A stretch of 30,817 nt of DNA from a virus (lineage: Duplodnaviria; Caudoviricetes): the IMG/VR virus record IMGVR_UViG_3300020575_000002, positions 1 to 30,817 of that record. One strand, 5' to 3'. Below are positions 18,404-26,816 of this stretch, one piece after another. Position numbers and translations under genes: made by a program. The notes beneath the pieces were generated by a model. The model was not told the origin of the DNA. It made no database searches and saw only the letters and a program-made list of their open reading frames with translations. Within the stretch, counting starts at the first letter, position 1. Each line of letters begins with the position of its first letter.

Positions 18404-19570
18404 CTAAAATACCGACACCTCAAATTTTAGCTTGGTTAAGTGCGTAAACACGGCATACCTACAAGCATCCATCAAGTCATCATTTGCCTTTACTGGCTCC
18501 TCTATTACGTTATCGTTTTTATCCTTTTTCCATTTGTAAGACATAAACTCCCTTCTAAGGTTTTTGCTATTGTAGTGCAAGTTTATAGGATAAGACTTCA
18601 TCTTTACTATCCCTGCCCATACATCCTTCTGCGCTGGTTTAATGTTAAAGCCTTGTCTGTAAAGTTCCTCAATAGACTTAGGCTCGGCAGCATCCGCATA
18701 GATTGTTGCTCGTTCAGGTAGCTTCTCTTTAATCAATCTTGATAGATCACTCAAAGTAAGTCCGCTTTGATATACTATTTCCTCAAAGTAGTTCTGTCCT
18801 TCGTGATGCGTAACCTTTATAAGTGCAGCAGGGTGAACATAACCAAAGTCCAATCCATAGAATACATCCCCATTTGGTGCTTCATCATATTGTTTCCATT
18901 GAGTATAAATAATTTCTTTTGCTGAGCCTCGTTCTCCTAAGCCATAAACTTTCCACATAAAGTCATCAGGCAAATCTTTATACTGCTCAATGTTTCTTAT
19001 TTGGCTATCGCTTAAGTTAGTGATATTGTTTAGATAGGTGGAATGTATGCGCTTATTCTTTGGGTTATCAGCTACTTCATAAACCCAAGAAATAAAGTCA
19101 GCAGGATTCCAATCTAAGAATGATTGTCCTGTTGTTCTTATCAATAGCTGGTCAAATAAAGCCTTACTAATAAGGTTTGCCTCGTTTACAAATAGTATAT
19201 CCCTTGCTGGTCCTTTTGCTTTATCAGGGTCTTCTAATCCAAATAACTCAATGTATGATCCGTTCTTAAACGTATAAATAAAATCCGTATATCGGAAGTC
19301 CTTTTCATCCCAGATATTCCATTGCTCAAGTATATTTTTAAAGTCCCTGTAAACTCCACGCTTAATATGTGGGAGTGAGTGCGATACCATTGAAATCCTT
19401 ATGTTGGGTTTGCTTATTGCTATGTGGATAAGTAACTGAACAACCGAATAGCTTTTACTTGATCTTGACCCACCTTCATTGCATATTATAGGATATCCTT
19501 CTTCGTATGCCTTTTTATTGGCATAGAAGACAGGTGTAGCCTTAATCTTTAATTGGTTGACAATCTGCAT
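18404..19570 (-). CDS. terL: Terminase large subunit (PBSX/SPP1-like)
   Basis: Walker A-like EGGSRSSKS, Walker B LFVNEA, DWNP, nuclease motifs GLDFGY, ADAAEP and DDLMDACRY. Confidence 0.95.
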   Translation of the reverse strand: MQIVNQLKIKATPVFYANKKAYEEGYPIICNEGGSRSSKSYSVVQLLIHIAISKPNIRISMVSHSLPHIKRGVYRDFKNILEQWNIWDEKDFRYTDFIYTFKNGSYIELFGLEDPDKAKGPARDILFVNEANLISKALFDQLLIRTTGQSFLDWNPADFISWVYEVADNPKNKRIHSTYLNNITNLSDSQIRNIEQYKDLPDDFMWKVYGLGERGSAKEIIYTQWKQYDEAPNGDVFYGLDFGYVHPAALIKVTHHEGQNYFEEIVYQSGLTLSDLSRLIKEKLPERATIYADAAEPKSIEELYRQGFNIKPAQKDVWAGIVKMKSYPINLHYNSKNLRREFMSYKWKKDKNDNVIEEPVKANDDLMDACRYAVFTHLTKLKFEVSVF

Positions 19571-19889
19571 CTGGTTCTATTGTGATTTGCACATTACCCT
19601 TTATGTCAGCGGTTATGTCGGTTGTTTGTTTAGGTCTGCCCTCTAATCGGTCTAATAGTATCTCATAAGCCTTTAGATCGCCCTTCCTTGCCTTTGCTAT
19701 GATTTGCATATCTAATTGCTCCGCTATTGTAAACTCCTCATCTTCGCCTGTTACTGGGTTGCGTACCTTAGTAACCAACTCCAATAAACGCAAAAGTCTT
19801 GTCTTACTATTAGGAACGCCCTTTGGTCTGCCGTTAGGGTTTCCGCTTACCCCTTTTGGGAATGCCTTTAAATTTTCTTCATTTGCCAT
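19542..19889 (-). CDS. terS: Terminase small subunit (DUF5681-like)
   Basis: FPKGVSGNPNGRPKG, KARKGDLKA..ILLDRLEGRPKQ; directly upstream of terL. Confidence 0.8.
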   Translation of the reverse strand: MANEENLKAFPKGVSGNPNGRPKGVPNSKTRLLRLLELVTKVRNPVTGEDEEFTIAEQLDMQIIAKARKGDLKAYEILLDRLEGRPKQTTDITADIKGNVQITIEPDADCQPIKD

Positions 19890-19915
19890 ACTTCGTTGAT
19901 TTCTCGTTGTATTTG

Positions 19916-19986
19916 AGCGGGAAGGTGGTATTGCACCCCTTCTTTAGTCTGGAATGACTAACGCATTACTTTTATGCTTCTCCCGC
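19916..19986 (-). tRNA. Non-canonical tRNA-Gly(UCC)-like RNA overlapping the 3' end of the Mom-like gene
   Basis: GCGGGAG AA GCAT AAAAGTA ATGC G TTAGTC ATTCCA GACTAA AGAA GGGG TGCAATA CCACC TTCCCGC T folds into a cloverleaf; G1-C72, C2-G71, G3-C70, U73 and UCC are present; U8, D-loop GG and TTC are absent. Confidence 0.75.
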
Positions 19987-20658
19987 TTGTCTTGATGCCA
20001 AAGTTACCTTATTACCCTTATACATTCCTGCTCCAAGTTCATCTATTTTTGAAAAAGGCAATATTGGTACTGTTAATTTACAAGTTTTATCTATTAAATA
20101 AATATATCTTAATTGAAATCCATTTAAAGGTACTGCTCCATTTTTTTTAGCATAGCCAGCACTTATACCTAATTTTTTATAATTAGAATTATTTAATGTC
20201 TTATCTGCTATAATTTTTCCTTCCCATTCTAAGATGGTTTTATTTTCTTTTATACCAGTCAAATTAAATCCACTTGCCCTGTATATAGTTCCATCACCAC
20301 ATTGTGTACCATCGGAATAAGATAATATCCATTTTATCTGTGGTGCATTTTTCTTTAATAATTTTATTGTAATTGCAATACATCTGCTTTCGCTATATTT
20401 TGGCAAATATTCATCAAATGCCATTCTATTCAATTCAAGCATTTCATTCCATCCAGTATTTTCTACTAATGGCAAAATTTTCCTTTTATCCATACTTGTA
20501 CCATAACTTAATACTCCGTGCAATTTACCATCTAAAAAGCATCCAAAGTGTAAAGTGCTATTCGGCACTACCTTGCCAGAATAATGGTTTAATTTAACAA
20601 ACTCATTAGCAACTTTGCTTGATATTACTTTAACTAAGATTTCTTTTGCTCTGCCCAT
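19972..20658 (-). CDS. mom: Mom-family (GNAT-fold) DNA adenine modification enzyme
   Basis: ANEFVKLNHYSGK, HFGCF...LHGVLSYG, LELNRMAF...PKYSESRCIA, WILSYSD..QC..GTIYRASGF match the Mu Mom-like motif pattern. Confidence 0.78.
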   Translation of the reverse strand: MGRAKEILVKVISSKVANEFVKLNHYSGKVVPNSTLHFGCFLDGKLHGVLSYGTSMDKRKILPLVENTGWNEMLELNRMAFDEYLPKYSESRCIAITIKLLKKNAPQIKWILSYSDGTQCGDGTIYRASGFNLTGIKENKTILEWEGKIIADKTLNNSNYKKLGISAGYAKKNGAVPLNGFQLRYIYLIDKTCKLTVPILPFSKIDELGAGMYKGNKVTLASRQAGEA

Positions 20659-21218
20659 TGCATTATTATTAAGTATAAAGCGTTACCATTTGAATTTTCG
20701 TTACCCATTGTTTCAGCGTACTTATATTCCTCTGTTCGTTTAATTTCCTCAATGGCATTTTTAATTTGTACGCATTGTTCATCTGCTAAAGTGAATGTCA
20801 TTTGCTGAAAAGGTGATTTATCTCCATCTGGCAAAGTAAATCCTTCACCTAAATCATCTACATTGCTAAAGCCTATTATATCTAAACCCCACTCCTCTAA
20901 TTCTTCGGTTTCCCAATTATTAGCAAGGTCGCTCCAATCCCATTCGCCAAAACCTACGTTATCTTTTACTATAAACTCTTTCTTTTGTTCTTCGGTAAGT
21001 TCTTTAGCTTGTTTTACAGGTACATCTTTAAGACCAGCTTCAATACAAGCCTTTAGCCTCATATTACCACCTAAAACAATATTGTTCTCATCTATAACAA
21101 TAGGTCTAAGTTCAAGCATTTGTGGGAAGTCTTTAATTGACTTTACTAGTTTCTTAAACTTGTCATCCTTGATAATTCTTGGGTTATTTGGATTAGGTTT
21201 GATTTCGTTAATGTTCAT
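20634..21218 (-). CDS. ParB/Srx-like N-terminal domain protein
   Basis: IKPNPNNPR..LVKSI...PIVID...VLGGNMRLKAC...DN...GEWD; C-terminal FQQMTFTLADEQ domain; overlaps mom by 25 nt. Confidence 0.88.
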   Translation of the reverse strand: MNINEIKPNPNNPRIIKDDKFKKLVKSIKDFPQMLELRPIVIDENNIVLGGNMRLKACIEAGLKDVPVKQAKELTEEQKKEFIVKDNVGFGEWDWSDLANNWETEELEEWGLDIIGFSNVDDLGEGFTLPDGDKSPFQQMTFTLADEQCVQIKNAIEEIKRTEEYKYAETMGNENSNGNALYLIIMQWAEQKKS

Positions 21219-21409
21219 TATCGGTTTTTTGTTGGTGTTCGTATTGATATTATGCTATCTACTTTCTTTTCTAAATTGTCATAGCCAACCCATTTCCCAC
21301 ACTTAGTACATTCAAATTGAGTTTCTTTTATCTTACCGAACCATACATAGCCTTCGGTAATTGTACCACATTTACAAGTATATAGCTTCTTTCCGTATGT
21401 ATCTTTCAT
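21218..21409 (-). CDS. Small zinc-ribbon protein
   Basis: CKCG ... CTKCG; TAATG coupling on both sides. Confidence 0.7.
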   Translation of the reverse strand: MKDTYGKKLYTCKCGTITEGYVWFGKIKETQFECTKCGKWVGYDNLEKKVDSIISIRTPTKNR

Positions 21410-21528
21410 TATCTGCCTTGTTGTTTATAAAGTTTAACTGGCTTATCCTTTGGACCAGATGTCTTTTTGTATTTGCCACATTTTCTTTTTCCAAAGCTAA
21501 CTTTGTTATTGCTGCTTACTTTTGCCAT
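21409..21528 (-). CDS. Small basic protein (39 aa)
   Basis: Not in the track. MAKVSSNNKVSFGKRKCGKYKKTSGPKDKPVKLYKQQGR*; TAATG-coupled to the next gene. Confidence 0.65.
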   Translation of the reverse strand: MAKVSSNNKVSFGKRKCGKYKKTSGPKDKPVKLYKQQGR

Positions 21529-21685
21529 TATAGTTGTTTATTATGTCTGCCATAAAATTAAATCTTTCTTCTTGTGTTTCTCCAAATACATAGTGCGTAG
21601 TTCCATCAATGTCAAAAACATAGCAAGGATAACCTGCTATTTCTTGCTCTTTGCACGTTTCAAATATGTTACTTGTATCTATCAA
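21506..21685 (-). CDS. Hypothetical 59-aa protein (TTG start)
   Basis: Not in the track. (M)IDTSNIFETCKEQEIAGYPCYVFDIDGTTHYVFGETQEERFNFMADIINNYNGKSKQQ*; fills the gap after ninG. Confidence 0.5.
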   Translation of the reverse strand: MIDTSNIFETCKEQEIAGYPCYVFDIDGTTHYVFGETQEERFNFMADIINNYNGKSKQQ

Positions 21686-22028
21686 TTAATTCTATTAATT
21701 CAGTTCTTTGCCATTTCTTAACCCTGTTATTAACCGCCTCAAACTCCAACTCTTTGACCGCTTTTTCACCTATCCTTTCAACAAGTCCTATTCGGTACAT
21801 TGCTTGGTTGCCGTGTTTAAACATATTGCACCCAGCACATTGTAAATGGATATTCCATTCGTTAAACCTTAAAGCGGAATACCCTTTAACAGTAAAGTAG
21901 TGTCCTGCTTGATTACCATTGTAGCTTCCGCAACTTATACAAGGTAACCCTTCATCTCTTTTTCTTATATACGCATTAACTACCTTTTGGGTCTTTTCTA
22001 ACAACTTGGGTAAAGGTATCAATGGCAT
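21669..22028 (-). CDS. ninG: NinG/Rap-family Holliday junction endonuclease
   Basis: AYIRKRDEGLPCISCG, AGHY, LRFNEWNIHLQCAGCN..KHGN...YRIGLVERIG. Confidence 0.9.
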   Translation of the reverse strand: MPLIPLPKLLEKTQKVVNAYIRKRDEGLPCISCGSYNGNQAGHYFTVKGYSALRFNEWNIHLQCAGCNMFKHGNQAMYRIGLVERIGEKAVKELEFEAVNNRVKKWQRTELIELIDRYK

Positions 22029-26378: not shown

Positions 26379-26816
26379 TTAAAGTAGCACATTTAAGTTG
26401 AAAATGTCGTTTTTTATGGTATCGTCGAACTTATTTGATAGCTGACCCCTGATCTTAGAGATTGAGTGTAAAACTGTGGTTCTATCCCTATTAAACAATT
26501 TTGCTATTTCCTCGCCATTTAACTCGGTTTTTTCCTTAGTGAAATACATAGTCATTTGTCTTGCTAAAGTAACCTCCTCACCCCTGTATTTAGACATCAT
26601 TTGTCCGTACTTAATCTGGTAGTAATTGCAAATCTTTTCAGCCATTTGAATTGCGTACTCCTTTTGTTGTTCTTTGTCCATTCTTATTGTTTTTATGTTT
26701 AAATGTTTGTCTAATAAATCCTTTAATTGATTTATCTCTTGCTTTAATTTTTTGTTCTTATCTCGCAAAACTTCTATTTCAAGTTCAGCCATATACGTTT
26801 TGTGTACTTCTCTCAT
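26379..26816 (-). CDS. Coiled-coil + DnaA domain IV-like HTH protein
   Basis: SKYRGEEVTLARQMTMYF.KE.TEL...EIAKLFNRDRTTVLHSISKI matches the DnaA C-terminal signature. Confidence 0.85.
   Translation of the reverse strand: MREVHKTYMAELEIEVLRDKNKKLKQEINQLKDLLDKHLNIKTIRMDKEQQKEYAIQMAEKICNYYQIKYGQMMSKYRGEEVTLARQMTMYFTKEKTELNGEEIAKLFNRDRTTVLHSISKIRGQLSNKFDDTIKNDIFNLNVLL

Follow-up and report, generated by a model that had tools for sequence, protein, structure and literature searches.

The window, by which we mean the whole stretch of 30,817 nucleotides that was analysed, holds a complete phage record of 30.8 kb bounded by direct terminal repeats. Its minus strand carries, in this order, genes for a ParB_N-domain protein, a Mom-family protein, a DUF5681 protein that is likely the terminase small subunit (terS), the terminase large subunit (terL), the portal and the capsid proteins. 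An RNA gene resembling tRNA-Gly begins inside the end of mom, so that the last four mom codons and the stop codon lie within it (Table 1). Elsewhere in the window, a single terminator-like hairpin is located upstream of this cassette (21620-21640), and 26379-26816 encodes a phage protein whose helix-turn-helix domain is that of the C-terminus of bacterial DnaA (PF08299, E 4e-19).

Table 1. Features of the mom-RNA locus and its neighbours in the window
Feature	Coordinates	Strand	Basis or remark
tRNA-Gly-like RNA gene, G1 to discriminator U73	19916..19986	-	71 nt; sequence inspection, folding, alignment, covariance model (CM)
CAA tail instead of encoded CCA	19913..19915	-	sequence inspection; CCA would need host addition
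Candidate Bacteroidota sigma-A -7 box TAnnTTTG	19999..20006	-	in mom coding tail, 12 nt before G1
Mom-family GNAT, 228 aa	19972..20658	-	PF25680, phrog_1384, Mu Mom homology, PDB 8bv8
ParB_N-domain protein	20634..21218	-	overlaps mom start; constant upstream partner
DUF5681 protein, likely terminase small subunit (terS)	19542..19889	-	downstream neighbour, outside cassette
Terminase large subunit (terL)	18404..19570	-	cassette at head of packaging genes

An earlier note on this DNA had called the protein Mom-like, and this assignment holds: it matches PF25680 (E 1e-49, 169 bits against a cut-off of 27), phrog_1384 (E 1e-47) and PDB 8bv8 (E 1e-22), and shares 34% identity with Mu Mom. Six of the nine tested Mu residues are kept, H58, Y59, R111, S124, D149 and Y159 corresponding to H25, Y26, R78, S91, D116 and Y126, and the columns of R111, S124 and D149 are kept in 220, 214 and 220 of 220 relatives, respectively. 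The columns of Mu R151, W48 and W181 are not kept and contain Q, K and I; Q occupies the R151 column in 170 of the 220 relatives. Mu Mom transfers glycine from Gly-tRNAGly to the N6 of adenine, accepts all three E. coli tRNA-Gly isoacceptors, rejects Gly-tRNAAla and is reported to require R151 (PMC13219725); the account of Gly-tRNA-Gly as the Mom donor, to which the earlier note had referred, is in print. Since R151 is replaced by Q, the chemistry or the donor of the window Mom may differ from that of Mu. Two of the loci (L562:2034-3470 and L563:2040-3507) carry tandem Mom genes of different subfamilies after a ParB-like gene, followed by one RNA.

The cloverleaf proposed in the earlier note was found on the minus strand with every stem, loop and the CAA tail at its place, from G1 at 19986 to U73 at 19916. 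It consists of an acceptor stem of seven pairs, including G-U at 7-66, a D stem of four pairs, an anticodon stem of five pairs with an 8-nt loop containing C35C36 (alternatively six pairs with a 6-nt loop), a variable region of 4 nt, and a T arm of four pairs with an unpaired, bulged A at 19926 and UGC in the T loop. The final base of the D stem is also the first base of the mom stop TAA (19974-19972). The sequence folds into the cloverleaf at -24.3 kcal/mol (z = -4.0), a value equalled by none of 200 shuffles; in the minimum free energy fold the T arm is paired slightly differently. Our covariance model R1, whose training set includes this RNA, scores it at 88.6 bits as the sole match in the genome. 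ARAGORN, expected in the earlier note to return a pseudo or undetermined tRNA, made no call in the window; the tRNA model RF00005 had no match in the whole genome, an Rfam scan near 19500-21000 gave nothing except two chance-level matches, and when cultured phages were searched with the 74-nt RNA by blastn, only six chance matches of 21-23 nt came up. One assembled RNA-seq contig of 151 nt covers 19837-19981 and is uninformative on mature ends, strand and level; four RNA-seq runs with 5-7% of words in common with the window were all assembled contigs and were not used as evidence.

The bacterial glycine identity set, G1-C72, C2-G71, U73, C35 and C36 (PMC9976931), is completely present in the window RNA. 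The earlier note had added G3-C70 as a bacterial determinant, which did not hold, since the same review lists this pair for yeast and archaea and it is absent from the E. coli determinants. All of the canonical tRNA features U8 (here A), G18G19, a 7-nt anticodon loop with U33, T54-U55-C56 and a five-pair T stem are absent. Pairs 49-65 and 50-64 are both G-C and position 63 is unpaired, where we infer the tRNA numbering of the bulge.

Related loci were collected starting from Mom homologs. The resulting set comprises 321 overlapping loci, 7 of them incomplete, 281 parsed and 33 unparsed (4 with CM matches), and its 165 distinct RNAs form 85 clusters at 85% identity. In an alignment of 73 distinct copies, chosen from 141 distinct parses that include false ones in genome loci, 99.5% of 1459 cells of the named cloverleaf are paired, as compared with 37-55% in slid controls; the copies were selected by a pairing-aware parse, which makes this percentage too high and leaves the diversity of pair types unaffected. 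Changes on both sides occurred in 18 of the 20 pairs, four pair types being seen in the anticodon stem and in the acceptor region between pairs 4-70 and 7-66, and RNAalifold recovered the same fold unaided with a covariation term of -8.1. The proposed conservation of the cloverleaf and of its glycine elements beside other mom homologs is thus borne out by compensatory changes and covariation.

The family was then described cluster by cluster, with a filter that imposed G1-C72 and a G-C-G-like start and left the anticodon and the bulge free. CC in the anticodon loop was found in 85/85 clusters, C2-G71 in 84, and G3-C70 and U73 in 83 each; among 109 distinct metagenome RNAs, for which the search pattern also left it free, CC occurs in 106. 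Two mom-adjoining RNAs without CC (L871 and L890) may represent decay or a changed donor. Features needed for decoding are present in part of the clusters (U8 in 48, D-loop GG in 50, TTC in 51 and a canonical anticodon loop in 16 of the 85), so the loss of U8, GG and TTC emphasized in the earlier note is true of the window copy and is not a rule of the family. The anticodon loop has 8 nt in 28 clusters, A33 in 26 and A34 in 11, and 34 of the 109 metagenome RNAs are short forms devoid of a D arm, while seven clusters are near-canonical in keeping U8, GG, a 7-nt U33 loop and TTC. In 84 of the 85 clusters the T stem has a bulge, located two pairs away from its junction with the acceptor, and the bulged base is A in 82; the imperfect T stem seen in the window is therefore a family signature rather than decay. 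The stem is unbulged in 22 loci of a third Mom clade, 19 of which have A51-U63. The constant defect of nearly all members is thus the 51-63 position of the T stem. By comparison, 15 tRNA-Gly genes from five Bacteroidota genomes, retrieved with a pattern requiring canonical loops and leaving 51-63 free, have G51-C63 (13) or C51-G63 (2) and no bulge. EF-Tu reads the T-stem pairs 49-65, 50-64 and 51-63, with A51-U63 costing +1.1 kcal/mol (PMC3239215), and A51-U63 is a weak pair of the staphylococcal non-proteogenic tRNA-Gly (PMC7826273); a bulge at this place as an EF-Tu antideterminant was found in no paper in our literature search. In these sequences the positions read by glycyl-tRNA synthetase (GlyRS) are thus fixed, those read by the ribosome drift, and the EF-Tu site is disrupted in three ways or more. 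Of the 165 family members, 22 encode CCA, including that of a Psychrobacter phage; the tRNA-Gly genes of the five Bacteroidota genomes mostly lack it.

These data bear on the possibility that the RNA is a working, if odd, phage tRNA-Gly, which tops up the general Gly-tRNA pool after losses to Mom or to cleavage by anticodon nucleases of the host, and serves the ribosome and Mom alike. ARAGORN picked up 66 of the 165 family members and called 50 of them tRNA-Gly, two cultured phages have the RNA annotated in this way, U34 is the commonest base at its position (65/78) with GGA and GGT dominating the glycine codons of the window, and phage tRNAs that evade nucleases by loop changes have been described (PMC10264068, PMC11464382). 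A translating role fits poorly with a canonical anticodon loop in only 16/85 clusters, with the frequency of A33, A34, 8-nt loops and D-armless forms, with the absence of U8, GG, TTC and a 7-nt loop from the window copy, and with the T-stem defect that almost every member shows at the EF-Tu site. We therefore regard this explanation as quite improbable.

The linkage between the RNA and mom was examined from both sides. Among the close Mom loci (the best 80 of 207 in IMG/VR), the RNA was found at the mom end in 79, 76 by structural parse and 3 by CM, and in the remaining locus the contig is cut inside mom. With the Mom of Psychrobacter phage vB_PmaS_Y8A as the query, the RNA was detected in 72/80 loci by CM; in the third clade it was detected in 79/80 by structural parse and in 58 by CM. 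A second subfamily yielded 53/80, where 23 of the 27 misses belong to one near-identical cluster and one is an incomplete locus. Searches starting from the RNA are a stronger test of linkage than those starting from Mom. A pattern with a four-pair T stem gave 116 viral cloverleaves among 119 matches listed (~520 estimated), and 112 of them have an adjoining Mom, 74 on the same strand as mom and 38 on the opposite one. Three of the four Mom-less cloverleaves among these listed matches have short flanks; the fourth (L089:1999-2110, minus strand) is an intact RNA next to which only the last mom codons are left, an apparent mom deletion. A pattern with a bulged five-pair T stem found a Mom-like ORF in 105 of 120 metagenome matches listed (~2000 estimated), including 13 weaker Mom calls that were all confirmed by Pfam; the other 15 comprise 6 chance matches and 9 real-looking RNAs without Mom, 3 of which are long-flanked on both sides. 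These three family-like RNAs without detectable Mom are L806:1155-1229, L858:1076-1149 and L873:1163-1229, the first of which comes after a glycosyltransferase-like gene. In a pattern scan of GTDB, 111 of 120 matches were due to chance in GC-rich genomes and three more (L260, L269 and L306) seem to be chance matches as well. Bacteroidota assemblies account for all six clear RNAs, and for four of these the retrieved flank contains Mom, suggesting a Bacteroidota host for the window phage. The loci are related, and the counts given here overstate their independence; for this reason no weight is placed on Fisher p-values for the neighbour controls below or for the terminator-like hairpins.

Two controls were anchored on the neighbouring genes. 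The best 80 loci found with terS (90-100% identical) comprised 11 with both mom and the RNA, 69 with neither and none discordant; 3 of the 69 have short upstream flanks, and 9 of the 11 are close kin and thus represent few events, while in two of the 11 both the Mom subfamily and the form of the RNA are different. Anchoring on the ParB-like gene gave 70 loci with both, 8 with neither and 2 with mom cut by the contig end (80 loci). Six of seven mom-less terS loci that were checked have a C5 or N6/N4 DNA methyltransferase in the place of mom. The RNA therefore travels with mom, not with terS or the ParB-like gene, and the slot is an anti-restriction slot; the co-occurrence predicted in the earlier note was seen in the searches from Mom, in those from the RNA and in both controls. 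The slot before terS (20634-21218 in the window; L463-L532 and L604-L612) is a swappable DNA-modification cassette, the variants of which in related phages are ParB_N with Mom and the RNA, ParB_N fused to an N6/N4 methyltransferase, and ParB_N with a C5 methyltransferase; in L492 it holds a gene pair with one weak TRM-type match. The idea of a packaging RNA was rejected on the strength of the terS control.

The arrangement of the RNA relative to mom varies. The RNA is antisense to mom in 48 of 165 distinct cases, it begins past the mom stop in 26 of 117 sense copies, and it lies 5' of mom in 30 of 109 metagenome copies. In the sense copies the mom stop is inside the RNA in 56/117, and the frame reads through the RNA in 35. 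At least 34 changes of orientation were counted on the Mom tree (161 rows), a FastTree tree with long-branch warnings that shows only scattered losses and mixing of orientations, not the order of events. At ten loci (L808, L809, L810, L818, L827, L856, L863, L866, L876 and L877) the RNA directly precedes a divergent, often shorter Mom gene, and in L810 and L876 this unit is downstream of an N6/N4 methyltransferase. Antisense copies have signals of their own. Of 47 distinct antisense flanks, 35 contain TAnnTTTG in the 45 nt upstream of the RNA, mostly 4-12 nt before G1, against a background of 3%; when a box shorter by one base is allowed, the number rises to 42/47 against 11%. Both -7 boxes correspond to the Bacteroidota sigma-A consensus (PMC9723704). 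A terminator-like hairpin with a T run is found downstream of 35/48 antisense and 0/117 sense copies; at antisense loci such as L017, L023 and L331 it is embedded in the last mom codons, where it would end the antisense RNA transcript. The mixed orientation, the 5' copies and the promoter- and terminator-like sites of antisense copies argue that the RNA is likely trans-acting.

In the window, the box at 20006-19999 might drive a separate transcript, and the case for it is weak because it coincides with V-T-L codons; an internal box occurs in 39/111 sense copies versus 4/47 on the same strand at antisense loci and is tied to the codons. A sigma-70 promoter and terminator scan of 19500-21800 remained at or below the shuffle level. 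Cleavage of a read-through transcript by RNase P would remove four mom codons and the stop, possibly as a local effect. The earlier note had suggested feedback through such cutting of the mom 3' end; as a design of the family it is contradicted by the antisense copies, the sense copies past the stop and the copies 5' of mom. The same arrangement data weigh on a wider explanation, namely that the RNA acts in cis, either as a processing signal that cuts the parB-mom-terS transcript (for mom feedback or release of the packaging mRNA), as a packaging RNA, or as a relic of recombination or attachment. Its place just before terS, the stops and frames inside the RNA, and the frequent exchange at the joint implied by the orientation changes would suit such an element. 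We nevertheless consider it very improbable, given the 69 phages with the same terS but neither mom nor the RNA, the antisense copies with promoter- and terminator-like sites of their own, the copies 5' of mom, and glycine-specific anticodon bases that cleavage would not need.

The RNA is also not universal among Mom loci. It was found in 5 of 17 annotated Mom regions and is absent from 12, including Mu, JD024 and phiEf11, and it was detected in none of the 13 Mu-type loci searched (of 45 fetched). Psychrobacter phage vB_PmaS_Y8A (OQ059336.1; L320:2162-2302) has two tandem, unannotated D-armless RNAs that encode CCA and lie between terS and a mom gene that is likewise unannotated; its genome paper reports no tRNA genes and lists a second mom (ORF69). 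Tandem copies are also seen in L826, L828 and L849. In Salinibacter phage B2_17 the RNA is annotated as tRNA-Gly, as is that of Microbacterium phage Appa, which is antisense, nearly canonical and keeps G51-C63; in Arthrobacter phage BarretLemon it is unannotated and overlaps the mom stop, and in the Mom region of a Bradyrhizobium plasmid it was read by eye and missed by CM R1. This model under-scores D-armless and unbulged forms, so that divergent RNAs may have been overlooked where the RNA seems absent outside the family. Within the family, 29 of 314 complete loci lack the RNA, with four CM-positive loci counted as present, and at least 7 changes of presence were counted on the Mom tree, the losses being scattered. 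The RNA-less lineages within the family are L630-L653 (except L636), L670, L671, L680, L344, L378 and L406. The RNA is therefore dispensable, as it is lacking in Mu and in some lineages within the family.

Considering these results together, the RNA is probably a dedicated and dispensable glycyl donor for Mom, which would be processed by the host, charged by GlyRS and ignored by EF-Tu. According to this model, the RNA would be transcribed together with or apart from mom, trimmed by host enzymes (RNase P and 3' processing) and supplied with CCA, and host GlyRS would load it with glycine. Due to the T stem broken at 51-63, EF-Tu is predicted to bind it poorly, and Mom would take the glycine from it and transfer it to the N6 of adenine in the phage DNA, which would give the N6-carbamoylmethyl-dA expected of the Mom family, as a protection against restriction. 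The RNA would be a booster rather than an absolute need; a private donor is in principle not needed, as Mu Mom works with all three host isoacceptors. One point against a donor role is that T. thermophilus GlyRS reads C50-G64, a pair that is G-C in the window RNA, and the capacity of GlyRS to glycylate an RNA with an 8-nt loop or without a D arm is a prediction from the sequences.

Alternatively, the RNA might be a bound subunit or regulator of Mom, such as a scaffold, an activator or an uncharged competitive inhibitor that times a toxic enzyme, with the bulged A as the Mom-binding mark instead of a block to EF-Tu and the glycine coming from host tRNA. The near-invariant bulged A (82/85) goes beyond what a mere loss of EF-Tu binding needs, Mom reads the tRNA body, as seen from the rejection of Gly-tRNAAla, R151 differs in the RNA-linked clades, and the linkage and the trans arrangement fit equally well. 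This explanation leaves unexplained why C35C36, which GlyRS uses as a determinant and which is distant from the acceptor end presumably read by Mom, is kept in 85/85 clusters and 106/109 metagenome RNAs, and why CCA is encoded where the hosts likely require it; in addition, the third clade has A51-U63 in place of the bulge. We consider it unlikely. The glycyl donor model can be extended to a more specific form, in which the bulged A at T-stem position 63 would have two functions, keeping EF-Tu away and being recognized by Mom enzymes of the R151Q type; the RNA and the enzyme would then be an orthogonal, co-evolved pair, spread in widespread ParB-like/Mom/RNA cassettes, some of them with D-armless RNAs, that channel glycine into DNA. 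This extension is tentative, and we give it somewhat less than an even chance.

The enzyme of the proposed system is known from Mu. The window Mom belongs to the same family (PF25680; PDB 8bv8), is predicted to use the same glycyl-donor chemistry (PMC13219725), and occupies an anti-restriction slot that DNA methyltransferases also fill. Mu, however, encodes no donor RNA and scavenges host tRNAs, whereas in the window a phage RNA is linked to mom, a ParB_N gene precedes it, and the residues at the R151, W48 and W181 columns differ. Staphylococci provide the precedent for a reserved tRNA-Gly; there the tRNA-Gly species NP1-3 of S. aureus and S. epidermidis are donors for FmhB, FemA and FemB, and EF-Tu sequesters ordinary Gly-tRNA from FmhB (PMC7826273). 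Similar to the phage RNA, they keep glycine identity, have UGC in the T loop, have lost the D-loop GG and have a weakened EF-Tu site, and in both cases the recipient is a GNAT-fold transferase (likely so for the phage RNA). The T loop of the NP species has UGC or UGU, the former as in the window copy, and their weak pairs are A49-U65, U50-A64 and A51-U63, of which the phage family has A51-U63, in 19 of the 22 unbulged relatives only; the phage RNA also differs from NP1-3 in being viral, adjoining its enzyme, having DNA as the target, and showing the bulged-A T stem, 8-nt loops and D-armless forms. Because the NP tRNAs are a lineage confined to staphylococci (PMC7826273), the phage RNA should have a separate origin, and the two are alike only in how they would work. 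With ordinary phage tRNA-Gly (RF00005), nuclease-evading ones included, the RNA shares the cloverleaf, and it is derived from tRNA-Gly; unlike them, it fails RF00005 and ARAGORN in the window, its decoding features are unconstrained, and it stands singly beside mom instead of in tRNA clusters. A connection between Mom and a tRNA-like RNA encoded by a phage was reported in none of the papers found by a search that fell short of most subscription journals; the text of PMC13219725 contains neither 'tRNA-like' nor 'encode tRNA', and two of its supplements contain no neighbourhood terms. The RNA family itself, its bulged and D-armless forms, and the combination of Mom with a reserved tRNA-Gly in one viral cassette thus appear to be undescribed.

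The RNAs described here belong to a large family that is overlooked or wrongly labelled by tRNA finders. If the glycyl donor model is true, this would be, within the literature searched, the first described virus with a dedicated non-translating tRNA for a DNA-modifying enzyme, and non-proteogenic tRNA-Gly would have arisen in nature a second time, outside staphylococci. The members of the family would be natural EF-Tu-blind carriers, including minimal D-armless ones. Cultured phages that carry the RNA (Psychrobacter Y8A, Arthrobacter BarretLemon, Microbacterium Appa and Salinibacter B2_17), together with the published in vitro Mom assay, make the idea testable. The model would explain how Mom could compete with EF-Tu for Gly-tRNA, and it would give a concrete answer to the question of why phages have odd tRNA genes.
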